Part shown: piece by piece, positions 8,573 through 59,378 of the stretch
Position numbering within the stretch: the stretch's first letter is position 1
How the letters are laid out: each line of letters starts with the position of its first letter
DNA from: Deltaproteobacteria bacterium
Lineage (GTDB): Bacteria; Desulfobacterota; GWC2-55-46; DRME01
NCBI GenBank assembly: GCA_011375175.1
Contig: DRME01000074.1
Coordinates: 1-59,378 of the forward strand
Length of the DNA: 59,378 nucleotides
Direction: 5' to 3'
Translations under genes and position numbers: made by a program
The notes under the pieces: model-generated
What the model saw: the letters and a program-made list of their open reading frames with translations, nothing else
Databases searched by the model: none
Told to the model about the DNA's origin: nothing

Positions 8573-9811
<1,239 letters not shown>

Positions 9812-44425: not shown

Positions 44426-44616
44426 CTGAGGGAACCTTTTTGTAAAGGGTCACAGCCCCACGGTTCCCTCAGACTCCCTCCAAAGACTTTTAACGCGAGT
44501 TGGTTTCCCCCTGTTTTGCATAGCAAAACAGGGGGAAACCAACTCGTATTTAAAGTCTTTGAAGGGGGTCCGGGGGAAACGTGGGCCTGTGGCCCTTCTA
44601 CAGAAAGTTTCCCCCA
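44426..44616. repeat. Copy of modular palindromic repeat
   Basis: Near-identical to 13630-13803 modules: CAGACTCCCTCCAAAGACTTTTAACGCGAGTTGG..., GGGGGAAAC-26nt-GTTTCCCCC. Confidence 0.85.
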
Positions 44617-44689: not shown

Positions 44690-45871
44690 CTACTTTTTTT
44701 CCCTGCCCTTGCCGCCGCCCTTCATGGCCTTTATGAGTATGCGGGCCACCTCGGGCCTTGAGAACTCGGCGGGCGGCACTTCGCCCCTTGAGAGCATCTC
44801 CCTCACCTTCGTGCCCGAGAGCGATATGTGCTCGGACGAGTCGTGGGGACAGGACTTGAAAGACGCCATGCCGCCGCACTTGCCGCAGAAGAAGGTGTAG
44901 TCGAAGAACATGGGCGTTATCCCTATGGCCCCGGCGTCGAACTCGTCGAAGATGTAGTGGGCGTCGAAGCTGCCGTAGTAGCTGCCCACGCCGGCGTGGT
45001 CGCGGCCCACGATGAAGTGGGTGCATCCGTAGTTCTTCCTGATGAGGGCGTGGAAGACGGCCTCCCTCGGACCGGCGTAGCGCATGGCCGCCGGCAGCAC
45101 GACGAGCGCCACCCTGTCCTTTGGGAAGTAGTTGTCTATGAGGACCTTGTAACACTCCATGCGGACCGAGGCCGGTATGTCGTCGCTCTTGGTCTCGCCT
45201 ACGATTGGATGGATCATGAGGCCGTCGACCGTCTCGAGCGCGCACTTCTGTATGTACTCGTGGGCCCTGTGAATGGGGTTTCTCGTCTGGAAGCCCACGA
45301 CCCTGCGCCAGCCCTTCTCCCTGAAGAGCGCCCTCGTCTCGGCCGGGTCGAGGCGGTGTTCGTTGAACTCCCTGTAGGTGCGCCGGTGCAGCAGCGACAC
45401 CGGTCCGCCCAGGAGCATCTCCCCCATCTCATAGACCTTCTTCACCCCCGGGTGGGCGTCTTCGGCCGTACCGTAGACCTGTATGGCCTCCTTCTCCTTG
45501 TCGTGCGGGTATATCTCCTCGAGGTGGAGCACCGCAAGGAGCGCGTCCGAGCCGTCCACGAGGGCCACGTCCGAGCCCTCCTTGAGTCCGCGCGCCTCCT
45601 CGGCCTTGCATGAGAGCGTTACGGGGATGGTCCAGGGCAGGCCGTTGGAGAGGGTCATGGTGTCCATCGTCGAGTGGTAGTCGGCCCTGGTCATGAAGCC
45701 TTTGAGCGGGCTGAAGGCGCCGACGGCTATCATCTCGAGGTCCGATATCTCGCGCTCGTTGAGCCTTATCTTCGGCAGCCGCCCGGCCTTCTTCTCGAGC
45801 TCCTCGCGCTCCTTGCCCTCGACCACCCTGTTTACGAGCTCGCCCCCGTGGGGGGCTATCAGTTCCGGCAC
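44690..45871 (-). CDS. sat: Sulfate adenylyltransferase
   Basis: [59 protein letters not shown]; GTG start 45871. Confidence 0.95.
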
Positions 45872-46018
45872 TTCCTTACCTCCTCGGCGGGGAAGTCCCC
45901 GGGGACGCAACCCCCGACTTCCCGGGCAAAACGGTCATCACCGCCGGCGTCGCCCATCCTGACGGATGGGCGACGCCGGTCCTGTCCATGCGGCGGCGCG
46001 GCCCGCGGCCGCCCGCCG

Positions 46019-46723
46019 CTACTCGTCCTTGTGGAGCCCGCACTCGGTCTTTGCGTGGCCCGCCCAGCGGCCGGCCCTGGGGTCCTCGCCGGGCTTGACG
46101 GGCTGGGTACAGGGCTCGCAGCCGATGCTGGGGTAGTTGCGGTCGTGGAGCACGTTGTAGGGCACGTCGTTACTGCGGATGTACTCCCAGACCTGGGCCT
46201 CGGTCCACTTGACCAGCGGGTTGATCTTCACGAGGTTGAAGAGCGAGTCCCAGCCCACGATGGGGGCGTTGGCCCTTGTGGGCGACTGTTCGCGGCGGAT
46301 GCCCGTTATCCAGGCCGACAGCGTTCCCAGCGCCTCCTTGAGGGCCGATATCTTGCGTATCTGGCAGCACTTCTTGGGGTCGCGCTTCCAGAGCTCGGGG
46401 CCGTACTCCTTTTCCATCTCCTCAAGCGACATCCTGGAAGCGAAACGCTCGGCCTTGAGGCCGTACTTCTCGGCTATCCTGTCGCGCACGTCGTAGGTCT
46501 CCTTGAAGAGCAGCTCCGTGTCGAGGTAAAAGACCCTCGCATCGGGCCTTATCCTGAGCAGCATGTCCACCAGGGCCACGTCCTCGGGGCCGTAGCTGCA
46601 GGCGAGCGCCACGTTGGGGTGAAAGTTGTCGAGCGCCCACCGCAGGGCGTCCTCGGGCCCCTTGGAGTCGAGCTCTTCGTTGACCCTGCTCAGTTCCTCT
46701 TCGGTCCATACCTTTGCTGACAT
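46019..46723 (-). CDS. cysH: Thioredoxin-dependent APS reductase (CysH family, Fe-S type)
   Basis: LDTELLF, CC.IRK, WITGIRREQS, SIGCEPCT, KTECGLH; CC plus CxxC are the [4Fe-4S] ligands of APS-type enzymes. Confidence 0.9.
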   Translation of the reverse strand: MSAKVWTEEELSRVNEELDSKGPEDALRWALDNFHPNVALACSYGPEDVALVDMLLRIRPDARVFYLDTELLFKETYDVRDRIAEKYGLKAERFASRMSLEEMEKEYGPELWKRDPKKCCQIRKISALKEALGTLSAWITGIRREQSPTRANAPIVGWDSLFNLVKINPLVKWTEAQVWEYIRSNDVPYNVLHDRNYPSIGCEPCTQPVKPGEDPRAGRWAGHAKTECGLHKDE

Positions 46724-46847
46724 CTCTGCTACCTCCGTCCTTTTTTGTTGCTTTGTCCCTGCTCCGCCTCCACAGGTGGCGGGTCGTCGGAGACACCACC
46801 GGCCACATGGGCGCCGTTGCGGCGCAAAGCGTCGAAGCCACTTTCCC

Positions 46848-47312
46848 TTACTCGTCGAAGATCACGACCTCGCAGGGGGCCTTCTCCCTGAGCTCCTCGG
46901 AGAGCGAGGCCGAGAAGTAGCGCCTGAGGGTCTTGAGCTTCCTCCTTGCGACGACGGCCGTGGCGGCTCCGCTCTCCTCTATGACGCGCAGCACGGTGGG
47001 CAGGAAGTCCCCCTCCTCCATCCTCGCCTCGAAGGGAACGCCCCTTTTGCGGGCCGCCTCCCCGACCGCCGCGAGCCGCTCGCGGCCGCGCAGCCTGTAC
47101 TCGCGCATGACCGCCTCGGTGAGCTCCGCCGATGGCCTCTCGCCTATGAAGCCGATGTCGCTGAAGGTGTCGAATATGCCCTTGGCGATCTCCGACTCCA
47201 CGAGGAAGAGGGCGAGAAGGCGCGCTCCCTGGCGGGCGGCCCTCTCAACGGCGTAGTCGACGGCCCGCTGCGAGGACCTCGACGTGGTGAGCACGACGAG
47301 CACGGTCTCCAT
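46848..47312 (-). CDS. Universal stress protein
   Basis: VLVVLTTS.SS..AV.YA...A; EEG.F...V; L.EKAPCEVVI. Confidence 0.75.
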   Translation of the reverse strand: METVLVVLTTSRSSQRAVDYAVERAARQGARLLALFLVESEIAKGIFDTFSDIGFIGERPSAELTEAVMREYRLRGRERLAAVGEAARKRGVPFEARMEEGDFLPTVLRVIEESGAATAVVARRKLKTLRRYFSASLSEELREKAPCEVVIFDE

Positions 47313-47314
47313 CT

Positions 47315-48742
47315 TCAGCGTCCCCCGCCCACAAGCGGCCAGTAGAGGTTTGCGACCAGGTTGAAGAGCACCCAGGCCGACGCGCTCATGAGGATGCCTA
47401 TCTTCGCCATGTCACGCACCGTCACGTAGCTGCTCGACACGGCGATGGCGTTTGCCGGCGTGGAGAGCGGCAGCGTGAAGGCCAGCCCCGCGGGCACGGC
47501 CACGGCATAGGTGAGCGTTGCGGGCTCCATGCCGAAATTCTCGGCCATTCCGACGCTTATGGGCACGAGTATGGCGATTACGGCGGCGTTGCTTATCCCC
47601 TCGGTGAGCACCAGCGTCACGAGCGAGAAGAGGGCCACGACGGCCCAGGGCGCCTCGACCCACTCGCCGATGGTCCTGTCGGCGAGCCAGAGGGCCGCGC
47701 CGCTCTTCTCGAGCGAGGCCCCCAGTATGATGGCGCCGCCGTACATGAGGATGATCCCCCAGTTGACGTACTCCTCGATGTCCTTCCACCGCACGAGCCT
47801 CAGGGCGAAGAGCAGCACCACGGCCGTGAGGGCTATGTTGGCGAGACCGAGCGAGTGTCCCAGCGTCATCCAGACGACGACGGTGCCGGCCATGACGGCG
47901 CCGACGGCGTACTCGCGGTAGCTCACCTTGCCCATCTCGTATATGCGGCGGCCCAGCACCTCGCGGGCCTTCTCCACACTCTCTATGTCCATGGGAAAGG
48001 TCCTGGTGAGAACCAGATACCCAACGCCGAGCATGGCCGCCACGAGTGGGGCCACCGAGACGGTATAGGTGAGAAACCCTATCGTCTCACCGGTCGTCTC
48101 CTTGAGTATGCCGGCCGCAAGGGGCACCCTCGCCCCGCCGAGGAAGGTCGCCACCCCTCCTATGACGCACCCCCAGGCAAGGCTCAGAAAGAGCAGCTTT
48201 CCGTAATTGGACCTGCCGGGCCGCAGCTCCAGCCCCTTTGCTATCTCCAGCACTATGGGAAAGAGCATGGCCGCCACGCCGTGCTCGCTCATGAGGCACG
48301 AAAGCGAGGCGGCGAGCAGGAATATGCTCACCAGAAGCCGCCGCGGCGAGGCGCCGAACCTCTCCAGTATGGCCAGTGCCACCCTGTTGGAGAGCCCCGA
48401 CTGCATGACGGCCCCGGCGAGGATAAAGGCGCCGAGTATGAAGAAGACGGCCTCGTTGCCGAAGAGCGCGTAGGTCTGCTGGGTGCTCAGAACGTCCAGA
48501 AGGGGCACGAGCACTATGGCCAGTATGCTCGTTATGGCCAGCGGCACCACGTTGGAGACCCACAGCACCAGGCAGACCATGAATATGGCCATGGCCCGCT
48601 GGCCCTCGGGCGTGAGTCCCTGCGGGGTGGGCAGGCTGACAATATACCAGAAAAGGACGGCCAGCGCCAGAAAGAATAAGGGTCTGAGCCCCTTGAGGAC
48701 GAGGAGCAGCCATATGGACCGTCTGTCTATCTTTACAGCCAC
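47315..48742 (-). CDS. SLC13/DASS family anion transporter (possible sulfate uptake)
   Basis: VPLAITS, IGGVATFLGGARVP, TEGISNAA, AFTLPLSTPANAIA; many TM helices. Confidence 0.85.
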   Translation of the reverse strand: MAVKIDRRSIWLLLVLKGLRPLFFLALAVLFWYIVSLPTPQGLTPEGQRAMAIFMVCLVLWVSNVVPLAITSILAIVLVPLLDVLSTQQTYALFGNEAVFFILGAFILAGAVMQSGLSNRVALAILERFGASPRRLLVSIFLLAASLSCLMSEHGVAAMLFPIVLEIAKGLELRPGRSNYGKLLFLSLAWGCVIGGVATFLGGARVPLAAGILKETTGETIGFLTYTVSVAPLVAAMLGVGYLVLTRTFPMDIESVEKAREVLGRRIYEMGKVSYREYAVGAVMAGTVVVWMTLGHSLGLANIALTAVVLLFALRLVRWKDIEEYVNWGIILMYGGAIILGASLEKSGAALWLADRTIGEWVEAPWAVVALFSLVTLVLTEGISNAAVIAILVPISVGMAENFGMEPATLTYAVAVPAGLAFTLPLSTPANAIAVSSSYVTVRDMAKIGILMSASAWVLFNLVANLYWPLVGGGR

Positions 48743-48821: not shown

Positions 48822-50048
48822 TCAATCCTTCTCCGTCGCGGCGCCGCCCGCCTCCTCGCCCGCCTCGTCCCTCACACGAAGTTTTCTTCGCAGCGTGGAG
48901 AGCCCCCATGCGGCCTTCATGCCGAGCCGCGTCTTGTAGAAGCCGCCGAATATGTCCTTGAAGCCGCTCTTCTCTCCGGCGAGCAGGGCCCCCTCCATGG
49001 GGGTGGTGACGACGCTGATGTCGCGCACCCAGTTCATGCTTATGTTGTTGCGCTTGACGGCCTCGTAGAGGTGTCTGTAAATGGGCACGATTATCTCGGC
49101 CGTAAGCGGCTCTATCCTCAGCGCCCTCTCGGGCGACGGCCTGTAGATCGGCAGGATTGGGACGACCCCCATGCCGGTCAGGAAGTCTATGCCCTGACAG
49201 GTGGAGCCCGGCATCTCAAGGCCCACGATGAGGTGCGAGGCCACGGTGCCGCTGGGGAAGATGCCGGCGGCGTAGCGCAGGGCCTCGATGTAGCGCTCGC
49301 GCCCTATGAGCTGCGCCCTCCCGGGGCATATCATCTCGAAGAGCTCCTTGTCGAAGATCTCGAGATTGTAGAGCACCGAGTCGGCTCCGGCCGCGTAGGT
49401 CTCGTCTATCCAGCGGTTGTCCCTGGGCGGCAGAGCCTCCACGGCGACGAGGCAGTGGAAGTGCTTCTTCACCGCCGTGATGTAAGGCCTCAGGAACTCA
49501 ATGCCCCCGTCGTCGCCGGAGCTGAAGCCGATGGAGAGGTAGATTATCTCCGATGCCCTCTCCTTGAGTATGGCCTCCACGGTCTCGACGACCTCGTCGA
49601 CTGTGTATACCCGGTCATCTCCGCCGTCTATATCGAAGTTGCCGGCGCAGTAGCGGCACTCGACGCTGCGGTTGAAGAACTCGCACCTCGGCGACGGCGT
49701 TATGACGGCGTAACGGCCGTGAGCCGTCGCTATCCTGGAGAAGGGCACGCCCGTTGAGGTGGAGCGCCCGTAGAACTCCGGCGGCCTGACCACCTCCACG
49801 TCGACCTCGCCGCTGTGGTCGACGATCCTGAACCCCCGGCCCCCGCTCGTGAGCAGGTAGGGCGACGCCCCGGTGAACTCCTCCCTGAAGGGGACGTTGA
49901 CGAGCGTTCCCCTGGGGAGCAAGAGGTCCAGACCGAGACTGTTGGCCGCCGCCTCTATCTCGGCGGCTATGGAGGGGTCGATCCTGATGCCGCGGAGCAT
50001 CAGGTCGATCTTCAGCGCGCCGGGATTATGGAGGTAACTCTTCTCCAT
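48822..50048 (-). CDS. Radical SAM protein with Cx8Cx2C motif (MSMEG_0568-like)
   Basis: CEFFNRSVECRYC; NLEIFD...F..ICPG, SHLIVGLE TIM-barrel motifs. Confidence 0.8.
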   Translation of the reverse strand: MEKSYLHNPGALKIDLMLRGIRIDPSIAAEIEAAANSLGLDLLLPRGTLVNVPFREEFTGASPYLLTSGGRGFRIVDHSGEVDVEVVRPPEFYGRSTSTGVPFSRIATAHGRYAVITPSPRCEFFNRSVECRYCAGNFDIDGGDDRVYTVDEVVETVEAILKERASEIIYLSIGFSSGDDGGIEFLRPYITAVKKHFHCLVAVEALPPRDNRWIDETYAAGADSVLYNLEIFDKELFEMICPGRAQLIGRERYIEALRYAAGIFPSGTVASHLIVGLEMPGSTCQGIDFLTGMGVVPILPIYRPSPERALRIEPLTAEIIVPIYRHLYEAVKRNNISMNWVRDISVVTTPMEGALLAGEKSGFKDIFGGFYKTRLGMKAAWGLSTLRRKLRVRDEAGEEAGGAATEKD

Positions 50049-50107: not shown

Positions 50108-50929
50108 TCACGTCTCGCAGCGGGCCGCCTGGAGCTCGCAGCTCTGCTCGTATGTAACGAGCTCCTTTATGACGGCGTTCTCGCCGCAGAGGGCGCAGTT
50201 CGGGTCCTTCCCCACCCGCACCTTCCTGAAGCTCATCTTGAGGGCGTCGAATATCATGAGGTGACCGGCCAGGCTCTCGCCTATGCCGAGGACCTCCTTT
50301 ATGGCCTCCACGGCCTGGAGCACGCCTATGACACCGGCCAGCGCTCCGAGCACTCCGGCCTCCTGGCAGCTCGGCACGAGCCCCGGCGGCGGCGGCTCTG
50401 GGTAGAGGCACCGGTAACAGGGCCGGCCTTCATGGGGCTTGAATACCGTCACCTGCCCGTCGAAGCGGAACATGGAGCCCGACACCAGGGTCTTCTTCTC
50501 GAAGAAGGCGGCGTCGTTCATGAGGAAGCGGGTGGGGAAGTTGTCGCTTCCGTCGAGCACCACGTCGTAGTCGCGTATGACGGAGCGGATGTTGTCGGCC
50601 GTGAGGCGCTCGTTGTAGGCCACGACCTTGCAGTCCGGGTTTAGCCTCTCGATGGACTCCCTGGCCGAGAGGGCCTTGGGCCTGCCTATGTCCGAGGTGT
50701 CGTGGATTATCTGGCGCTGGAGGTTGCTCAGGTCCACGGCGTCGCCGTCGGCTATGCCGATGGTGCCCACGCCGGCGGCGGCCAGGTAGTAGAGGGCCGG
50801 CGAGCCGAGCCCTCCGGCGCCGAGCACGAAGACCTTGCTCTCCAGGAGCCTGGCCTGGCCCGTTCCGCCCACCTCGGGCAGGATTATGTGACGCGAATAA
50901 CGCTCTATCTGCTCTTCTGTGAAGTCCAT
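50108..50929 (-). CDS. moeB: MoeB/ThiF family sulfur-carrier adenylyltransferase (E1-like)
   Basis: RYSRHIILPEVG, GAGGLGS, SNLQRQ, DGSDNF.TR, CYRCLYP, SCQEAGVLG, CALCG. Confidence 0.92.
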   Translation of the reverse strand: MDFTEEQIERYSRHIILPEVGGTGQARLLESKVFVLGAGGLGSPALYYLAAAGVGTIGIADGDAVDLSNLQRQIIHDTSDIGRPKALSARESIERLNPDCKVVAYNERLTADNIRSVIRDYDVVLDGSDNFPTRFLMNDAAFFEKKTLVSGSMFRFDGQVTVFKPHEGRPCYRCLYPEPPPPGLVPSCQEAGVLGALAGVIGVLQAVEAIKEVLGIGESLAGHLMIFDALKMSFRKVRVGKDPNCALCGENAVIKELVTYEQSCELQAARCET

Positions 50930-51006: not shown

Positions 51007-51423
51007 TCATGCAATCTCCAGCGCCTCTTCGGCGAAGGGCTCGTCGGGCTCCTCGAAGCACCAGCTTCGCGCGCTCTCGACCCTGCCCCCGCGCACCGAG
51101 ACGATGAGGTACGAATACCAGGGCTGCCCCCTCTCCCTGTCGAAGCGCGAGGGCCTGTCGGCGTGGTCGGGATGGGAGTGGTAGAAGCCGAGCACGTCGA
51201 GACCTTCGGCCCTCGCCTCCTTGTCTATCCTGTTGAGGTCGGCCGGCGATATCTCGTAGCGGTCCCCGGCGCGCTCGGTGTTCCTGTTCTCCGTCCTCAC
51301 CACCCTCTCCACGACCTTGACCTCCGACGCCGTGCCCACGAGCACCCCGCAGCACTCGCGCGGATAGGCCGTGCGCGCGTGCGCCGTGAGCTCGTCGTAG
51401 AGCTCCCTCGTCATGCGGAGCAC
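51007..51423 (-). CDS. M67/JAMM metallopeptidase (Mec/HcyD-like)
   Basis: YPRECCG.L.G; GFYHSHPDH...PS.FD JAMM motif. Confidence 0.9.
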   Translation of the reverse strand: MLRMTRELYDELTAHARTAYPRECCGVLVGTASEVKVVERVVRTENRNTERAGDRYEISPADLNRIDKEARAEGLDVLGFYHSHPDHADRPSRFDRERGQPWYSYLIVSVRGGRVESARSWCFEEPDEPFAEEALEIA

Positions 51424-51424
51424 C

Positions 51425-52384
51425 TCAGGCGCCCTCCCAGAGCCTGGTGCTCAGGTACTTGTCGCCGCCGTCGGGAAAGATGACGACGATGAGCCCCTTC
51501 TCGATCCTCGAGGCGAGCCGCATCGCAGCCCACATGGCGGCGCCCGAGGACTGGCCGACGAGAAGGCCCTCTTCGCGGGCAAGGCGCTTGGCCATGTCGT
51601 AGGACTCCTCGGTCGGGGCCGCTATCTTGTCGTCGTGCTCCTCGGCGTGGTATATGCCGGGCACGATGGAAGAGGCCATGTGCTTGAGGCCCTCGAGCCC
51701 GTGGAGCGGGCTGTCGGGCTCTACGGCCACGACCTGGATATGGGGATTGTACTCCTTGAGCCTCCTGCCCGTGCCCATTATGGTGCCGCCCGTGCCTATG
51801 GAGGCGACCAGGTGGGTTATGCGCCCCTCGGTCTGCTCGAATATCTCCACGCCTGTGGTGTCGTAATGGGCCCTCGGGTTGGAGGGGTTGTTGTACTGGT
51901 CGAGCTTGCAGTACTTCTCCGGGTTGTCGACGTAGAGCTTCCAGGCGAGCCTTATGGCCCCGTCCGACCCCTCGAGCGGGCTCGAAAATACGACGTTGGC
52001 GCCGAAGGCGTGGAGTATCTTCTTGCGCTCCTCGCTCACGTTGGCCGGCACGACGAGCTCCACCCTGTAGCCCTTCACGGCCCCTATCCAGGCGTAGGCT
52101 ATGCCCGTGTTGCCCGAGGTGGAGTCGAGTATGACCTTATCCTTCGTCAGTATGCCGGCGGCCTCGGCGTCCTCTATCATGCGAAGCGCCGGCCGGTCCT
52201 TGACCGAGCCGCCGGGGTTGCAGCCCTCGAGCTTGGCGTATATCTCCACCTCGGCCGGAAGCTCGCGGGTAATACGGTTGATACGCACAAGCGGCGTATT
52301 ACCGACGAGCTCAACGGCCGATGACTTGACGCCGAGTCCCTGGGCCCTGAACGCGTGCATCCGCACCGCCTTCTCTCCACTCAT
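51425..52384 (-). CDS. cysM: PLP-dependent cysteine synthase (CysM-like)
   Basis: VGNTPLV, KLEGCNPGGSVKDR, STSGNTG, QYNNPSN, GTGGT, GQSSGAA; GGAGG before ATG 52384. Confidence 0.9.
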   Translation of the reverse strand: MSGEKAVRMHAFRAQGLGVKSSAVELVGNTPLVRINRITRELPAEVEIYAKLEGCNPGGSVKDRPALRMIEDAEAAGILTKDKVILDSTSGNTGIAYAWIGAVKGYRVELVVPANVSEERKKILHAFGANVVFSSPLEGSDGAIRLAWKLYVDNPEKYCKLDQYNNPSNPRAHYDTTGVEIFEQTEGRITHLVASIGTGGTIMGTGRRLKEYNPHIQVVAVEPDSPLHGLEGLKHMASSIVPGIYHAEEHDDKIAAPTEESYDMAKRLAREEGLLVGQSSGAAMWAAMRLASRIEKGLIVVIFPDGGDKYLSTRLWEGA

Positions 52385-52406
52385 TGTGCAAAACCTCCGT
52401 CGAGGG

Positions 52407-52517
52407 GGCTCATCCGTCGCTGAAAAAGACCCCCTAATGGAACTCAGGACCATCGAGCAGGTTGCATATCGCGTTGACGCGGCTCATCCGTCGCTGAAAA
52501 AGACCCCGTAATGGAAC
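52407..52517 (-). promoter_or_regulatory. Duplicated 37-nt leader motif with two short uORFs
   Basis: 52407-52443 and 52481-52517 differ at one base; uORFs 52434-52487 (MSRVNAICNLLDGPEFH) and 52381-52413 (MSPLDGGFAQ). Confidence 0.6.
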
Positions 52518-52523
52518 GGCACG

Positions 52524-52575
52524 CAATACCCTACTAAGCTTGTCAAGTTTACAATACCCTACTAAACTTGTCAAG
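52524..52575 (-). promoter_or_regulatory. Sigma70 promoter with tandem IscR/Rrf2-type operator sites
   Basis: CTTGACAAG(T/C)TTAGTAGGGTATTG twice, 28-nt period; TTGACA-N17-TAAACT; about 20/25 match by eye to the IscR type-1 consensus. Confidence 0.7.
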
Positions 52576-52713: not shown

Positions 52714-52950
52714 TCACTCGATGACGTCGAGCTCTATGGGTTCGACCTTGACGCCCTTGTCGATGAAGAAATCGATGGCCTTGTCTATCTCTTCGGGCTC
52801 GCCGTCGAACTCGAGGGCCACGAGTCCGAGGCTCGGAGAGACCGAGGCCTGGCGTATGTTGGTGACGACCCTGAAGCGACGTCCCACCTCGTAGATGAGG
52901 GGCTCCCGGATGCGCTCCTTGGGATATGTAAGGTAGACCCTCTTCTTCAA
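52714..52950 (-). CDS. Stand-alone NIL-domain protein
   Basis: RVYLTYP...IREPLIY...F.VV.NIRQASV...G.V.LE..G; TTG start overlaps the carrier stop codon. Confidence 0.8.
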   Translation of the reverse strand: MKKRVYLTYPKERIREPLIYEVGRRFRVVTNIRQASVSPSLGLVALEFDGEPEEIDKAIDFFIDKGVKVEPIELDVIE

Positions 52951-53228
52951 CGCACGCCTCCCGCTATGGCGGGGATGATGGAGAGTTCGTCGCCGTCGCT
53001 TGTCGGCGTGGAGAGGTTGTCCCTGAAGCGTATGTCCTCGTCGTTGATATATATGTTTATGAAGCGACGGAGGTTGCCGTCTTCGTCGCAGATGCGCTCC
53101 TTGAGACCGGGATGCCTCTTTTCGAGGTCCTCGATGACCTCCGAGACCGTGGCCCCCTCGGCCGTCACCTCGTCCTGGCCGCCCGTTATCTTCCTCAGGG
53201 GAGTCGGTATCCTCACCTTTACCGCCAT
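52947..53228 (-). CDS. MoaD/ThiS family sulfur carrier (CysO/HcyS-like)
   Basis: VRIPTPLR, RFINIYINDEDIR, IIPAIAGG-VR C-terminus. Confidence 0.92.
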   Translation of the reverse strand: MAVKVRIPTPLRKITGGQDEVTAEGATVSEVIEDLEKRHPGLKERICDEDGNLRRFINIYINDEDIRFRDNLSTPTSDGDELSIIPAIAGGVR

Positions 53229-53316: not shown

Positions 53317-55770
53317 TCATACCGCCTTCTTGACGAGAAGCTCGTAATGGTCGCCGGTCTTCTCCATGCGCAGGATCTCCTGGCCGTCGTTTCTCAGGCT
53401 CGAGGGGACGTTCCTTATGGGCTCGCCCTCGTCGAGGTAGAGCAGGAGTTCCTCGCCCTTTTTCATGGTCTCGAGCTTGATCTTGGCCTTCACGTAGTTT
53501 ATGGGGCACTTCACGCCGCGAAGGTCCATAAGCACGGGCCCGGCGCCCCCTTCGTCCTCCGCGCCGCCGGGGGCCTGCCGGCTCTCCGGGGCCGGGGCTT
53601 CGCCCTCCCCGCCCTTCTCCCCCTCTATCCTCTCGAGCCTGAAGTGGAAGAAGTCGTCCATCGACGAGTAGAGGGCCTTGACGCGGTCCAGCATGGCCTC
53701 GATGCGGCCCAGGTACTCATCGAGCCCCCGCTCGTTGAGCAAGCGCGACGAGAGGAGTTCGGCCGTCCTGTCAAGCCCCGCGAAGCGCTCCGGGACGAGC
53801 CCCCGGCCTATGAACTTGGACTCGAAGTGGTCTACGGCCTCCTCGTCCGAGGCGGTCTCTATGCCCTGTGTTATGAGCAGCGCCTTGCACGTGGCCACAA
53901 GGCCCCTGTAGGCGGCCTCCGACGCCTCTTCGAGACGGCCCTGCGCGAGCGCCCGCCGCGCCCCGGCCAGCGAGCCTTCGGCCTCCTCTATGTCCACGTC
54001 TATTATGTCGAAGACACCGGCGCCGCACTCGCCGGGACCGAGACCGGCCAGCGAGAACTCCTCGTCCACGCCCCAGTCCGTGTACATCTGCGGGGCCTCG
54101 TCATGGGGCGGCATGGTCGAGTACCGCTCGACGAGCTCCCTCACAACGGCCCTGCCGCCGCCGTCGAGGTAGTCGTGGAAGCCGCCCTCCCCCCTCTCGG
54201 CGGCGTAGCGGCCGAGCAGCTCGGTGACGAAGGCCGGTATCCTCTTCGCCGGCACGAAGCCGTAGGTCTCGGCAAGCCTCGTCTTGCCGGCCTCGACCCT
54301 GCCTCCGGCAAGCACCTCGTAGTGGGGGGCGAGCCGCCCGTCGCCTCTCTTGGCCGCGCCGTAGAGGCCTATCGCCCCTACGGGGTGCTGGCCGCAGGCG
54401 TTGGGGCAGCCGCTTATCTTTATGTCCACGTCGAGGGAGCCGAGATCGAGTCCGCCGCCGCAAAGCTCCCTGGTGAGCTCGGCCGCCATGTTCCTTGAGA
54501 GGCATATGCCCAGGTTGCACGTCGACGCGCCGGGACAGCAGAGTACGTCGTCGATGCGGCCGGCGCCCGCGCGGCCGAGGCCGAGTTCGGCGAGCGCGGC
54601 GAAGAGGGGCCTGAGCTCCTCCTCGCGCAGCCAGCGGATCATGAGGTTCTGGTCGTGGCCGGTGCGGAGCGTGCCCTCGCCGAAGCGCTCGACCACGTCG
54701 GCAAGACGCCTGAGGACGGGGGCCTCGATGTCGCCGAGTTCGAGCCTTATGCGGGCGTAGTGGAAGCCGGGCTGCTTCTGCTCCCTCACGTTGGAGGCGC
54801 GCCAGAGCTCAAAGCCCCGCTCGTCGAAACCGGCCGGCGGCTCGCCGGCCTCGACCGCGCCAACGTCACGAAGCCGCGGGACGGGCCGCAGCGCCATGGG
54901 CCTGGGGCCGCTGCTTCGCACCGCATCGAGCTCCCGGCGGTAGAGGTCGAGGAACTTCCGCTCGCCGTACTTCTCGATTACGAAGCGAAGGCGCGCCTTG
55001 TGCTTGTTGCGCCTGTTGCCGTGCTTGTCGAAGAGGTTCATGACCGCCTCGGCCACGGCGAGGGCCTGGTCGGCCGGTATGAACTCCTCGATGAGTGTTG
55101 CCGGACGCGACCACGCGCCCATCCCGCCGGCGGCCCACACCTGGAAGCCCTCTTCGGCGGCACCGCCGCGCCCGCGCCTCACGGCCACGAAGCCCACGTC
55201 GTTTATGGTCGCCAGGGCGCAGTCCTCGGCGCAGCCGGAAAAGGCTATCTTGTACTTCCTGGGCAGGCTGTAGGCGCTGGGGTGCGTCAGCAGCGCCTCG
55301 GTGACGGCCACGGCGTAGGGGGCCACGTCGAAAGACTCGCGGGGACAGACGCCCGACTCTGGACAGGCCGTCACGTTTCTGAGGGTGTTGCCCCCGCCGC
55401 CGCGTGTGGATAGACCCACCTCGGCAAGCGACCTCATGGCCTTGACCGTGTCCTCGAGCACCACGCGGTGGAGCTGCACGTCCTGGCGGGTCGTCACATG
55501 GGGTATGCCGTTGCCGTACCGCTCCGAGAGGTCGGCTATGCGGCGCATCTGTTCGGGAAGCAGTCCGCCCGCCGGGACCCTGATCCTCATCATGTGGGTC
55601 GTCTGGCCCCGCTGGGCGTATACGCCCCTCGTGACGCGGAAAGGCTTGAAGCGCTCGCGCGATATCTCGCCGCGCAGGACCTTCTCCACCTCGGCGGCGT
55701 AGACGTCGATGTCGTCGATGATCTCCTGCGGTATCTCGTAGAAACTCTTCGCCTGCTTTACATCACTCAT
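53317..55770 (-). CDS. sir: Siroheme sulfite/nitrite reductase fused to HEPN-like and TusA/SirA domains
   Basis: GVYAQR, HVTTRQDVQLH, LPRKYKIAFSGC, ISGCPNACGQH; C-terminal MDLRGVKCPINYVKAKIKLE. Confidence 0.88.
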   Translation of the reverse strand: MSDVKQAKSFYEIPQEIIDDIDVYAAEVEKVLRGEISRERFKPFRVTRGVYAQRGQTTHMMRIRVPAGGLLPEQMRRIADLSERYGNGIPHVTTRQDVQLHRVVLEDTVKAMRSLAEVGLSTRGGGGNTLRNVTACPESGVCPRESFDVAPYAVAVTEALLTHPSAYSLPRKYKIAFSGCAEDCALATINDVGFVAVRRGRGGAAEEGFQVWAAGGMGAWSRPATLIEEFIPADQALAVAEAVMNLFDKHGNRRNKHKARLRFVIEKYGERKFLDLYRRELDAVRSSGPRPMALRPVPRLRDVGAVEAGEPPAGFDERGFELWRASNVREQKQPGFHYARIRLELGDIEAPVLRRLADVVERFGEGTLRTGHDQNLMIRWLREEELRPLFAALAELGLGRAGAGRIDDVLCCPGASTCNLGICLSRNMAAELTRELCGGGLDLGSLDVDIKISGCPNACGQHPVGAIGLYGAAKRGDGRLAPHYEVLAGGRVEAGKTRLAETYGFVPAKRIPAFVTELLGRYAAERGEGGFHDYLDGGGRAVVRELVERYSTMPPHDEAPQMYTDWGVDEEFSLAGLGPGECGAGVFDIIDVDIEEAEGSLAGARRALAQGRLEEASEAAYRGLVATCKALLITQGIETASDEEAVDHFESKFIGRGLVPERFAGLDRTAELLSSRLLNERGLDEYLGRIEAMLDRVKALYSSMDDFFHFRLERIEGEKGGEGEAPAPESRQAPGGAEDEGGAGPVLMDLRGVKCPINYVKAKIKLETMKKGEELLLYLDEGEPIRNVPSSLRNDGQEILRMEKTGDHYELLVKKAV

Positions 55771-56004: not shown

Positions 56005-57258
56005 TCAGAGGGCGCAGCTCTTCCGGCCCTTGACGAGGGCGTCGAACTCCTTGAGGCTTGCGTTTATGACCGGTGTCTCGCCGAGCTTGCCGTAGAGGGC
56101 CTCCTGTGTCTTGAGGCCGTTGCCCGTTATGGAGACGACGATGGACTCGTTTCGCGGGATACGGCCCTGTTCGAGGAGCTTTTTCGTAACGCCCAGCGTT
56201 ACGCCTCCGGCCGTCTCGGCGAAGATGCCCTCGGTCTCGGCCAGCAGTCTTATGGCGTCTATTATCTCTTCGTCGCTCACGTCCTCGCCCCAGCCGCCGC
56301 TCTCGCGCATGGTCCTGGCCGAGTAGTAACCGTCGGCCGGGTTGCCTATGGCGAGGCTCTTGGCTATGGTGTCGGGCCGCACCGGCCTTATGAGCTCCGA
56401 GCCTTCCTTCACGGCCGTCACTATGGGGGCGCACCCGGTGGCCTGGGCGCCGTAGATCTTCGAGTCCAGCGGCCCATCGACGAGCCCCAGCCTGTGGAAC
56501 TCCTTGAAGGACTTCCATACCTTGGTTATGAGCGAGCCTCCGGCCATGGGCACGACCACGTGCTTCGGCAGCCTCCAGCCGAGCTGCTCGACGATCTCGT
56601 AGCCGAAGGCCTTGGAGCCCTCGGCGTAGTAGGGCCTTATGTTTATGTTGACGAAGGCCCAGCCGTACTTGCCCGCTATCTCGCTGCACAGACGGTTGAC
56701 CTCGTCGTAGGTGCCCCTGATGCGCACCATGTTGCAGCCGTAGACGAGGGTGCCGAGTATCTTGGTGGGCTCCAGGTCGTGGGGGATGAAGACGTAGTTC
56801 TCGAGGCCCGCCGCCGAGGCGTTGGCGGCCACCGAGTTTGCGAGGTTGCCGGTGGAGGCGCAGCTCACCACGTCGAAGCCCAGCTCCACAGCCTTCGATA
56901 TGGCCACCGAGACGACCCGGTCCTTGAAGGAGAGGGTCGGGTAGTTGACGGCGTCGTTCTTTATGTAGAGCTCGTCAACGCCGAGGGCCTCTTCGAGGTT
57001 GCGGGCCCTCACAAGGGGGGTGAAGCCCACCTGTGCGCCCACGGTTGGCTCTCCGTCAAGGGGCAGGAGCTCACGGTAGCGCCACATGTTCGCCGGCCTC
57101 GACTCTATGACCCGGCGGCTCAGCGCCTTCGCTATCTCTTCGTATTCGTAGACGACCTCGAGCGGGCCGAAGCAGAACTCGCAGACATGGAGCGCCTCTT
57201 TGGGGTACTCCTTGCCGCACTCCCTGCACTTTAGCGCCTTCACGTAACTCATCTCCAT
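56005..57258 (-). CDS. Threonine synthase-like PLP enzyme with N-terminal zinc ribbon
   Basis: CRECG...CEFC, SFKDR, CASTGNLA, PMAGGSL, AIGNPADG, ITGNGLK. Function may not be threonine synthesis (see findings). Confidence 0.85.
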   Translation of the reverse strand: MEMSYVKALKCRECGKEYPKEALHVCEFCFGPLEVVYEYEEIAKALSRRVIESRPANMWRYRELLPLDGEPTVGAQVGFTPLVRARNLEEALGVDELYIKNDAVNYPTLSFKDRVVSVAISKAVELGFDVVSCASTGNLANSVAANASAAGLENYVFIPHDLEPTKILGTLVYGCNMVRIRGTYDEVNRLCSEIAGKYGWAFVNINIRPYYAEGSKAFGYEIVEQLGWRLPKHVVVPMAGGSLITKVWKSFKEFHRLGLVDGPLDSKIYGAQATGCAPIVTAVKEGSELIRPVRPDTIAKSLAIGNPADGYYSARTMRESGGWGEDVSDEEIIDAIRLLAETEGIFAETAGGVTLGVTKKLLEQGRIPRNESIVVSITGNGLKTQEALYGKLGETPVINASLKEFDALVKGRKSCAL

Positions 57259-57294
57259 TCCCCCCTTGCTTGAAAAAACTCTTTTTCGGCGGCC

Positions 57295-57330
57295 AAAAAA
57301 AAACCTCTTCTTTTGAAGCTAAGAAGAGGT
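57295..57330 (-). terminator. Intrinsic terminator of the SAM-I expression platform
   Basis: ACCTCTTCTT-loop-AAGAAGAGGT followed by a long U tract on the minus strand. Confidence 0.85.
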
Positions 57331-57340
57331 ACGAGACCTT

Positions 57341-57513
57341 TTCTTATCTTCCAAGGTCCTCCTCGGCCTGCCGGGGCCCGAGGCGCCATTCGCCCCCCGG
57401 CAGACCCCGGCCGGGACGTGGCGGACCTTGCTGGAATTAGCACCTGTCACCCCCGAAGAGGCCGGTTGCTGTGGCTTCACAGGGCCAGTTCCCTCTGCCA
57501 CTCTTGATAAGAA
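57341..57513 (-). ncRNA. SAM-I (S-box) riboswitch
   Basis: TTCTTATCAAGAGTGGCAGAGGGAACTGGCCCTGTGAAGCCACAGCAACC...GGTGCTAATTCC...GGAAGATAAGAA; the 3' strand of P1 can pair with the terminator 5' arm as an antiterminator. Confidence 0.95.
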
Positions 57514-57539
57514 CGTTAGCGTATTCAGTTGTATCTGGT

Positions 57540-57567
57540 TATATAATATGAAAACGGCCGAATGTCA
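57540..57567 (-). promoter_or_regulatory. Sigma70 promoter upstream of the S-box
   Basis: TTGACA-N17-TATATA on the minus strand. Confidence 0.6.
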
Positions 57568-57803
57568 AGACAATAATGGACGGTCTCTGCGACAAAAAAG
57601 CTGCGTGGGCTCCCGGCTCCTGTCCGGCCGGCCGAAACCGGAAGGCGGCGCACCCGCCCAGGCTCCGCCGCCGACACCGCAACGGTGGTGACTGCGGTCA
57701 CATACGGGGCGCTGTGCTTTCAATATACTGTAAGTACGATCTATGGGGCTCGGAGCGCATCGGCCGGAGGCGGCCCGCGGCTCTACTTGTGAGACAACTC
57801 TTC

Positions 57804-57831
57804 TTGACAGACGCTACCCTGACGATAAAAT
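57804..57831 (+). promoter_or_regulatory. Sigma70 promoter for the beta-helix gene
   Basis: TTGACA-N16-TAAAAT. Confidence 0.5.
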
Positions 57832-57892
57832 ACATGGTAAGATACGACGCATCTAAAGTCGAACCGGAAGAGAGGAACGGAAGGTGGACAAG

Positions 57893-59378
57893 ATGAGCAG
57901 AAGCAGAGTAAAAACCCTGTTGGCGGTGATTTGCATCCTGCTGGCCGCTCCTTACACGGCGGCGGCGGCCACATATTACGTCTCGCCCAATGGAAGCGAC
58001 TCCAACGACGGCCTCAGCACGAAAACCCCGTGGGGGACCCTCGTCCATGCCACAAAAAAGATGTCCGGCGGCGATACCCTCATTCTGATGGACGGAATAT
58101 ACACCTCCAACTGCAAAGACTATTCAAACTGCGAAAATCAACTCATCCCACCAAGTGGGAGCCCTGGTAATTATACAGTCATAAAGGCTCAGAATGACTG
58201 GAAAGCCGTCATAGATGGCAGTGGATTTCCCCTCTGGCGCTACCCCATCCACATCAAAAACGGATCTTATATACAAATAGAAGGACTAAAATTGGTGGAC
58301 GGCGGCGGTATGACCGCTGTCATGGTAGAGCGTTCCAGCTACATAAAGCTAATGCGACTCTCCATAACAAACGGGGTTCCTTACAATGCCCAATGGGGCA
58401 ATGTGCTTTCTATCGCCAACGCGAGCCACCACATACTTGTTGAAGACACGTGGATCAGCGGTGCCATGAGATACGGTGTCCTTGTCATCGGCGATAACGA
58501 CGGACCGGTCTCCTCTACAACTTATAAGGTTATTCTGAGGAGGGTCGTTGTCAGGTTCGACTATATAGACAGCGTTGAGCCAAAAGCGGCAATTGCATTT
58601 TACGGTGCCGACAAGGCATCAAACGGCATGGTCAGAGACAGTATGTGCCAAAACTGTATAGTGATAGATACGAATCCCGCCAACTCCTACAAGAACTTCT
58701 ATGGCGCATACTACAACCCCAAGATAACGGAGAACATAAAATACTACGGTTCCATAGCCCTTAACATCAAGGCCTCCGGCTTGGAGTTCGGTTCACCCTA
58801 CGATGCCGCAGGCTTTTACGTAACCGACAACTATTCGCTATCCAAGGGACATGAGTTGCATAACGTTGTGGCGTGGGATGTAGCTGGTGTAGGTATTCGT
58901 TTCGATCAGGGCGATTCAAGCGGAAGCGGCATTGTCAATCAAAGTACGGTTGGGTACTCTACTTATGGTGTAATGGATACGGCAAAACTGCCAGTTACGC
59001 TTCAGAACAGCATCATTTACAACAATGCAAAACCAAACGCAGGAGTGGACATATCAAAATACAACACTTATGTCCCCCCTTCCCACGCAGAAGGGAGCAA
59101 CTACAAGACAACCGATCCGGGGTTGCGCTATCTTGTCAGAACAACCGATACAGGTACAGGTTTGAACGGAATGAAGATAGGCGCCGACATCGAAAAACGC
59201 TACGGCGTCTCCGGCACCCTGTGGGACGAGCCCGGCTATGACCAGCTTACAAACGTTCCGCTCTGGCCGTGGCCCTACGAAGACCAGATTAAAAAAGACT
59301 TTTCGGCCTCCAACGTTCCGCCGCTCGGGGCCTATCCTCCCACAAACGACACGAAGAGGGGCTTCTGCGCGCCCGGAA
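57893..59378 (+). CDS. Secreted right-handed beta-helix protein (pectate lyase/DUF1565-like), runs off the right edge
   Basis: Hand translation is open from ATG 57893 to the window end: signal peptide, ATYYVSPNGSDSNDG...PW.TL..A...GDTLILMDGIY. Confidence 0.8.
   Translation, partial: MSRSRVKTLLAVICILLAAPYTAAAATYYVSPNGSDSNDGLSTKTPWGTLVHATKKMSGGDTLILMDGIYTSNCKDYSNCENQLIPPSGSPGNYTVIKAQNDWKAVIDGSGFPLWRYPIHIKNGSYIQIEGLKLVDGGGMTAVMVERSSYIKLMRLSITNGVPYNAQWGNVLSIANASHHILVEDTWISGAMRYGVLVIGDNDGPVSSTTYKVILRRVVVRFDYIDSVEPKAAIAFYGADKASNGMVRDSMCQNCIVIDTNPANSYKNFYGAYYNPKITENIKYYGSIALNIKASGLEFGSPYDAAGFYVTDNYSLSKGHELHNVVAWDVAGVGIRFDQGDSSGSGIVNQSTVGYSTYGVMDTAKLPVTLQNSIIYNNAKPNAGVDISKYNTYVPPSHAEGSNYKTTDPGLRYLVRTTDTGTGLNGMKIGADIEKRYGVSGTLWDEPGYDQLTNVPLWPWPYEDQIKKDFSASNVPPLGAYPPTNDTKRGFCAPG

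Follow-up and report, generated by a model that had tools for sequence, protein, structure and literature searches.

Predicted MetM-type homocysteine synthase, annotated as threonine synthase, in a SAM-I riboswitch-led sulfur gene cluster of a Deltaproteobacteria bacterium

Positions 1–59,378 of contig DRME01000074.1, from the Deltaproteobacteria bacterium assembly GCA_011375175.1, form the stretch referred to as the window. Its reverse strand encodes a gene annotated as threonine synthase (ThrC), which lies behind an S-adenosylmethionine (SAM)-I riboswitch and heads a 12-gene same-strand cluster reaching position 44690. The genes encode, in order, the ThrC-like enzyme, a sulfite reductase-TusA fusion (Sir-TusA), a ThiS-family sulfur carrier, a NIL-domain protein, CysM, a JAMM metalloprotease, an E1 adenylyltransferase, a radical SAM protein, a symporter, Usp, CysH, and Sat (Table 1). 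The product of the ThrC-like gene is probably a homocysteine synthase of the MetM type that depends on the carrier and is controlled by a SAM OFF switch.

An Rfam scan of the whole window returned one match, to the SAM-I family RF00162, at 57420–57513 (-) with 54 bits and an E value of 1.1e-9 (gathering score, 44.4). Alignment with homologous leaders showed that in this match P4 is missing its 3′ half and P1 its 3′ strand; the match is partial because of a ~65-nt insertion in P4. An independent covariance model, built from 12 homologous leaders with the window sequence left out, matched the full aptamer end to end at 57338–57516 (-) with 97.5 bits. The minimum free energy (MFE) fold of 57290–57516 forms a four-way junction and then a terminator (-107 kcal/mol, z -3.8). 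P1, formed in this fold by 5′ UUCUUAUC paired with GAUAAGAA, closes the junction. In P4, CAAGGUCC and GGACCUUG flank the GC-rich insertion (57359–57422, -), which folds into its own long imperfect hairpin, and GAUAAGAA lies 3′ of both. The P4 loop varies widely in length among related leaders. The conserved core, the P1–P4 four-way junction, and the above-threshold score place the RNA in the SAM-I family. In a permissive Rfam scan, the cluster gave no further credible match to a riboswitch or other known RNA.

The expression platform contains a 10-bp terminator hairpin (57303–57330) followed by a U9 run, identified by terminator scan. In the alternative antiterminator, the P1 3′ strand GAUAAGAAAAGGU pairs with ACCUCUUCUU, which the terminator also uses. 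The two structures have near-equal folding energies (-13.2 kcal/mol for the antiterminator vs -13.4 for the terminator), and the antiterminator can form in nascent RNA before the terminator 3′ arm is transcribed. From these pairings, the platform is predicted to be a classical S-box OFF switch, with the P1 3′ strand and the terminator as competing partners of ACCUCUUCUU. Abundant SAM would stabilize P1 and sequester the GAUAAGA strand from the antiterminator, the terminator would form, and the unit would be turned off. A promoter-like TTGACA-17-TATATA lies ~25 nt upstream of the aptamer and was not reported by the consensus scan because its -10 hexamer ends in A. A search for transcript evidence found no public sequencing run holding the stretch. 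The first-pass annotation had already placed a SAM-I riboswitch upstream of the ThrC-like gene and had seen that gene at the head of a same-strand unit with sir and the carrier. Both observations were borne out by the Rfam and independent models and by the gene order, with the aptamer boundary corrected and the unit extended to 12 genes.

The ThrC-like protein is 415–417 amino acids in length, and the second ATG, at 57252, is the probable start because the database copy has 415. The open reading frame (ORF) matches Pfam PALP (2.9e-68). From its family matches, the product is a fold type II pyridoxal phosphate (PLP) enzyme of the ThrC family with the catalytic lysine expected of MetM, here K112 within a conserved SFKDR. 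A PDB search gave true ThrCs as best matches at only ~200 bits (top score, 201), and no solved MetM structure was found there. Among 1.84 billion cluster representatives scanned, 13,298 relatives were detected, the top 150 of which each outscore every solved ThrC. The window protein is 54% identical to a homolog from the actinobacterium Nonomuraea vs 36% to canonical ThrC. In a distance-based neighbor-joining tree, built without support values, the window protein and actinobacterial homologs linked to SAM-I and a carrier group in one large clade that excludes both canonical and haloarchaeal ThrC. The window protein also has a 55-residue N-terminal CxxC…CxxC zinc ribbon that the solved ThrCs lack. 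As a clade marker the zinc ribbon was rejected, being shared by some representatives with the canonical ThrC motif (P0252 and P0256) and by haloarchaeal ThrC-type sequences.

Residues were compared between 84 clade members and 9 canonical sequences, with clade conservation of at least 95% per column. Twenty columns discriminate the clade, and the window protein matches the clade in every one of them. These include (canonical to window) T to L139, S to N206, N to R208, R to Y211, R to A303, and W to G310. L139, N206, and Y211 align to T88, S155, and R160 of Thermus thermophilus ThrC, which are reported, in the structural work of Omi and Murakawa, to contact the substrate phosphate. An arginine is present at R208, three positions before Y211. 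At the site that reads VNS[VI]NPxR[IL]EGQK in canonical enzymes, close relatives have the motif VN[VI]N[LIV]RP[YFW]YAEGSK. The window protein has VNINIRPYYAEGSK at this site, which departs from the canonical phosphate-site motif. By alignment, then, the substrate-phosphate-binding positions of ThrC are remodeled in the window protein.

Canonical ThrCs (T. thermophilus 1UIM, Aquifex aeolicus 2ZSJ, Bacillus subtilis 6CGQ, and Mycobacterium tuberculosis 2D1F) share the fold, SFKDR, and an STGN loop with the window protein, and presumably O-phosphohomoserine as well. The window gene differs in that its neighbors are sulfur genes and not hom and thrB and that a SAM riboswitch precedes it, and its product in the zinc ribbon and the clade-specific columns. 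The gene could nonetheless encode a genuine threonine synthase, co-transcribed with sulfur genes, with SAM tuning the threonine/methionine branch point. The PLP lysine and many ThrC-shared residues are kept, which favors this reading, but the low identity to canonical ThrC and the replaced phosphate-contact positions make it very improbable. A SAM OFF switch would also cut threonine synthesis when methionine is replete, the opposite of sensible branch-point control. The switch fits an enzyme of the methionine branch and not of the competing threonine branch, which counts in favor of MetM.

Related loci were collected from GTDB species genomes. At least 600 stretches matched, and counts were taken from the 80 best (58–79% identity), which come from Thermodesulfobacteriota, Nitrospinota, Nitrospirota, Planctomycetota, Verrucomicrobiota, Acidobacteriota, Chloroflexota, and other phyla; none of the 80 is from Streptomyces. 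Protein searches that started from a Micromonosporaceae homolog gave matches in Micromonosporaceae only. Six-frame ORFs of these loci were searched with the window proteins. A ThiS-like ORF lies just 3′ of the ThrC-like gene on the same strand in 74 of the 80 loci, which again argues against a true threonine synthase. A NIL ORF lies nearby downstream on the same strand, usually directly after the carrier, in 39 of the 80 (among L001, L009, and L019–L079). E1, JAMM, and CysM homologs are frequent neighbors, and many carrier-linked loci have no detectable CysM homolog nearby. Rfam detected a SAM-I riboswitch 5′ of the gene in 10 of 15 loci, and the covariance model made from the 12 leaders detected one in 44 of the 80. 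The full 12-gene order with SAM-I recurs in L001 (GCA_040960375.1).

Four Nitrospirota loci encode a second ThrC-like gene, without the zinc ribbon, directly after the NIL gene (Table 1). The canonical phosphate-site motif is matched by two of these four copies (L032 and L052). The L032 copy, with VNSINPYR[IL]EGQK, is 61–63% identical to annotated thrC genes that adjoin thrB or hom in Bacillota. The Nonomuraea gerenzanensis chromosome encodes both types, with the MetM-like locus and a canonical thrC 9 Mb apart; its MetM-like locus has the order SAM-I, MetM-like gene, and 91-amino-acid carrier ending in GG. Clade members are thus not the sole thrC-family gene in these relatives (L023, L032, L038, L052, and Nonomuraea), a further point against a true threonine synthase. 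The PLSDB entry for this replicon, NZ_LT559118.1 (L085 and L086), is titled Nonomuraea gerenzanensis plasmid I and is almost unannotated in PLSDB. At 11.85 Mb and with the core genes thrC and groEL, it is evidently a chromosome.

A pathway of this kind has been described in Streptomyces albulus, where, according to papers that cite the original work, MetM, MetO, Mec, and MoeZ convert O-phosphohomoserine to homocysteine (Hasebe et al. 2024, Appl Environ Microbiol 90:e01247-24, via bioRxiv 10.1101/2024.10.14.618325 and PMC12172450). The same two papers relay that MetM is “often misannotated” as threonine synthase. As summarized, MetO thiocarboxylate is the sulfur donor (bioRxiv 10.1101/2024.10.14.618325), and S. 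albulus metM has an upstream SAM riboswitch and homologs in cyanobacteria (PMC12172450). GapMind 2026 already includes the pathway (bioRxiv 10.1101/2024.10.14.618325). The window shares with it a ThrC homolog annotated as threonine synthase behind a SAM riboswitch, a ThiS-family Gly-Gly carrier, a JAMM hydrolase (Mec in S. albulus), and an E1; the same substrate and product are predicted here from sequence. The clade placement together with the co-encoded carrier, JAMM hydrolase, and E1 identifies the window genes as a predicted MetM/MetO system. The Nonomuraea pair shares the riboswitch-enzyme-carrier layout of the window, with 54% and 53% identity of enzyme and carrier, respectively.

Several differences set the window apart from S. 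albulus. All steps from sulfate uptake to cysteine and homocysteine lie in one 12-gene same-strand cluster. The E1 has no MoeZ rhodanese domain, and the carrier has a two-residue VR extension. The sulfite reductase is fused to TusA, NIL and radical SAM proteins are encoded, and the host is a Thermodesulfobacteriota-like metagenome-assembled genome. The NIL protein lies outside the published MetM/MetO scheme as the citing papers summarize it.

The first-pass annotation had proposed that this “threonine synthase” makes homocysteine from O-phosphohomoserine and a carrier, and had suggested a phylogeny of carrier-adjacent ThrC homologs as a check. The tree sets the clade apart from canonical ThrC, and the predicted activity is supported by the clade, the neighborhood, the paralogs, and the active-site residues. 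Because the MetM/MetO pathway was published in 2024, the idea was right but not new.

Carrier-dependent routes also exist in M. tuberculosis, with CysO and CysM, and in Wolinella succinogenes, with HcyS and MetY (PMC6225789, PMC8191291). The best PDB matches of the window carrier are CysO of Amycolatopsis orientalis (4n6e_B, 99 bits) and CysO of M. tuberculosis (3dwg_C, 92 bits), and next to it the window encodes CysM-family and JAMM proteins, as in the M. tuberculosis system. The CysO-CysM-Mec+ pathway, reportedly worked out by Burns et al. in 2005, makes cysteine from O-phosphoserine; unlike the window, it is not known to have a ThrC-like partner or a SAM riboswitch. The HcyS/HcyD/HcyF/MetY/Sir pathway of W. 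succinogenes was reportedly described by Krishnamoorthy and Begley in 2011 and uses a carrier thiocarboxylate as sulfur donor for homocysteine. It resembles the window in a JAMM protein that trims residues after Gly-Gly, an E1 without rhodanese, and a sulfite reductase clustered with sulfate assimilation genes. Its C–S bond-forming enzyme, MetY, is a fold type I enzyme acting on O-acetylhomoserine, whereas the window enzyme has the ThrC fold (fold type II) and is predicted to use O-phosphohomoserine.

Some observations weigh against a MetM assignment. Every public copy of the window protein is named threonine synthase, and the protein passes the NCBI thrC model TIGR00260 (281 bits; cutoff, 167), both of which also favor a true ThrC. 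This model cannot separate the two clades, however, because the Nonomuraea MetM-like protein passes it too. A clade member from Microcystis aeruginosa was reported to have threonine synthase and deaminase activities in vitro, the former again in favor of a true ThrC, and to give no clear homocysteine with Na2S (PMC12172450). Orthology with S. albulus MetM is argued through Nonomuraea and Micromonospora and is thus an indirect link. The Micromonospora coriariae clade member (LT607412.1; L004 5855–7287) has SAM-I upstream and no adjacent carrier, so that some actinobacteria must encode the carrier elsewhere. No thrB, hom, or canonical thrC was found in the 59-kb window, where tblastn recovered only the CysM-like paralog and Pfam searches of the other genes gave none. 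Finally, an internal promoter-like site precedes cysM, so the riboswitch may govern mainly the first four genes.

Table 1. Features of the window and second ThrC-like genes of related loci
Feature	Position	Strand	Basis
Promoter-like site TTGACA-17-TATATA (putative)	57540–57568	-	Read from sequence
SAM-I (S-box) riboswitch aptamer with ~65-nt GC-rich P4-loop insertion	57338–57516	-	Rfam, independent model, MFE fold
Expression platform, antiterminator vs terminator	57295–57352	-	Terminator scan, folding energies
MetM-like ThrC-family PLP enzyme	56005–57258	-	Pfam, NCBIfam, clade analysis
NirA/SirA-type siroheme sulfite reductase with C-terminal TusA fusion	53317–55770	-	Pfam NIR_SIR, NIR_SIR_ferr, TusA
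ThiS/MoaD-family sulfur carrier, CysO/MetO type, 93 amino acids, ends …AGG-VR	52947–53228	-	Pfam ThiS
Free-standing NIL-domain protein, 78 amino acids	52714–52950	-	Pfam NIL 1e-12
Internal promoter-like site and duplicated units upstream of cysM	52398–52575	-	Promoter and repeat scans
CysM/CysK-family cysteine synthase	51425–52384	-	NCBIfam, PDB matches
JAMM/Prok-JAB metalloprotease, HxHx7Sx2D motif	51007–51423	-	Pfam Prok-JAB 1e-27; motif from translation
ThiF/MoeB-type E1 adenylyltransferase, 273 amino acids, without rhodanese domain	50108–50929	-	Pfam ThiF 2.6e-83; NCBIfam MoeB/UbaA-like
Variant radical SAM protein	48822–50048	-	NF045502, 176 bits
Na+/sulfate symporter	47315–48742	-	Pfam
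Usp	46848–47312	-	Pfam
PAPS/APS reductase CysH	46019–46723	-	Pfam
ATP sulfurylase Sat	44690–45910	-	Pfam
Perfect 20-bp hairpin ending the cluster	44499–44543	.	Terminator scan
Second ThrC-like gene, L023	2138–3265
Second ThrC-like gene, L032	9856–10947
Second ThrC-like gene, L038	1936–3015
Second ThrC-like gene, L052	1959–3098

The genes behind the MetM-like gene cover carrier processing and sulfur supply. Sir-TusA has ferredoxin nitrite/sulfite reductases as best PDB matches, including M. tuberculosis NirA (1zj8), and its TusA domain keeps the conserved Cys. The carrier is 53% identical to the Nonomuraea carrier encoded 3′ of that genome's MetM-like gene. The TTG start of the NIL gene overlaps the TGA stop of the carrier gene (TTGA), and from this overlap the NIL protein is translationally coupled to the carrier. 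It matched no NCBIfam model. The long cysM ORF runs to 52453, with a likely start near 52384. Its product scores 386 bits with TIGR01138, just below the cutoff of 394, and 359 bits with TIGR01136, above the cutoff. Its PDB matches are cysteine synthases including M. tuberculosis CysM (3dki), which ordinary cysteine synthases outscore. The JAMM protein is a predicted trimmer of the carrier C terminus or hydrolase of the carrier adduct. Against the MoeZ model, the E1 aligns over the N-terminal ~275 positions only. As it has no rhodanese domain, sulfur delivery must differ from the MoeZ type. A radical SAM gene also lies 3′ of the E1 gene in L001, L006, and L011, and the sulfate assimilation block (44690–48742) is found in the same order in L001.

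On an unlikely reading of the same genes, the enzyme would be an O-phosphohomoserine sulfhydrylase drawing on free sulfide that Sir or the surroundings provide. The carrier, JAMM protein, and E1 would then serve the CysM-like enzyme only, as in M. tuberculosis. The grouping of CysM, JAMM, and E1 behind their own promoter-like site would fit, as would the Micromonospora enzyme without an adjacent carrier and the sulfidic settings that these lineages inhabit. However, the carrier gene directly follows the MetM-like gene in the great majority of loci, many of them without a detectable CysM nearby, and in the window it is encoded in the part of the operon nearest the riboswitch, apart from cysM. 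In S. albulus, as the citing paper relays, the pathway uses MetO thiocarboxylate, and the failure of the M. aeruginosa enzyme to give clear homocysteine with Na2S also speaks against free sulfide.

As a carrier-dependent MetM, the enzyme would bind O-phospho-L-homoserine and eliminate phosphate. It would then accept the carrier thiocarboxylate at C-gamma, instead of water at C-beta, which yields threonine, and homocysteine would be released from the carrier adduct. Sulfur would be supplied by sulfate uptake through the symporter, activation by Sat, reduction to sulfite by CysH, and further reduction by Sir-TusA. The JAMM protease would trim the …GG-VR tail of the carrier, and the ThiF-type E1 would adenylate the exposed Gly-Gly end before its conversion to the thiocarboxylate. 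Sulfide from Sir and the TusA domain are candidate sulfur sources for the adenylated carrier. The CysM-like cysteine synthase would probably draw on the same carrier. An extension of this scheme makes the NIL protein a required partner, in homocysteine/methionine sensing or sulfur hand-off, and has Sir-TusA hand reduced sulfur directly to the adenylated carrier; CysM and MetM would then both be fed by one carrier, with no free sulfide involved. This extension is tentative and on balance doubtful.

The ThrC family includes cysteate synthase, and the radical SAM and NIL genes of the cluster have unassigned roles. A different replacement reaction or substrate, such as a cysteate-synthase-like or an O-phosphoserine-dependent one, or a thio-metabolite other than homocysteine could be considered on these grounds. 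The match to the cysteate synthase model TIGR03844 is weak, with 55 bits far below the cutoff of 325, and the dedicated CysM already covers a C3 substrate. The frequent SAM-I riboswitches among the 80 genomes point to the methionine branch, and the characterized family member makes homocysteine, as the citing papers report it. Such a reaction thus has little to recommend it and is highly unlikely.

The MetM assignment matters for annotation, since the threonine synthase label persists on the gene and on thousands of close public homologs, and a separate MetM model is absent from NCBIfam (June 2026). Automated reconstructions of these mostly uncultured lineages will consequently overlook a methionine route and count too many threonine synthases. 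A re-annotation rule could require VN[VI]N[LIV]RP[YFW]YAEGSK together with a ThiS gene 3′ of the candidate and a SAM-I riboswitch 5′ of it. The operon would be a compact case of sulfate conversion to cysteine and homocysteine through a protein-bound sulfur carrier. Modest further interest comes from having all steps in one operon, from the fusion of Sir with TusA and the conservation of the NIL partner, and from how broad the clade is.

The reductase type differs between the window and a relative. The window encodes an 817-amino-acid NirA-type reductase-TusA fusion, whereas L001 (11356–12563), an 80%-identical relative, encodes a small, 321-amino-acid NIR_SIR+Fer4 reductase and a separate 80-amino-acid TusA. 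The function at the sulfite-reductase position of the operon is conserved, and the type of reductase is not.

The NIL-cysM spacer contains a promoter-like TTGACA-17-TAAACT (52546–52574). A 24-nt unit occurs twice in the spacer, each copy holding TAGTAGGGTATT, for which zero chance matches are expected, and a 46-nt leader unit occurs twice upstream of cysM in 91% identical copies. The TTGACA…GGTATT core upstream of cysM is conserved in L001 (13300–13405) and L006, and the duplicated leader motif recurs in the L001 group only. The duplicated leader folds no better than shuffled sequence (z -0.1). The spacer may be an operator for a cysteine or sulfur regulator.

The hairpin that ends the cluster lies between sat and a convergent fxsA-like gene and is probably a bidirectional terminator. 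Sub-threshold matches to plant miRNA families are drawn by this hairpin and are spurious. An ACT-domain aspartate kinase, which catalyzes the first step of the pathway toward homoserine, is encoded at 8573–9811 (-), ~45 kb from the operon and unrelated to it. At the other end of the window, the last ~1.5 kb (57836–59378, +) falls from ~65% to ~48% GC. This region, a candidate for horizontal acquisition, encodes a secreted protein of more than 500 amino acids with a signal-peptide-like N terminus, and the ORF continues past the window end. The gene points away from the riboswitch and is preceded by a strong promoter-like site at 57804–57831.

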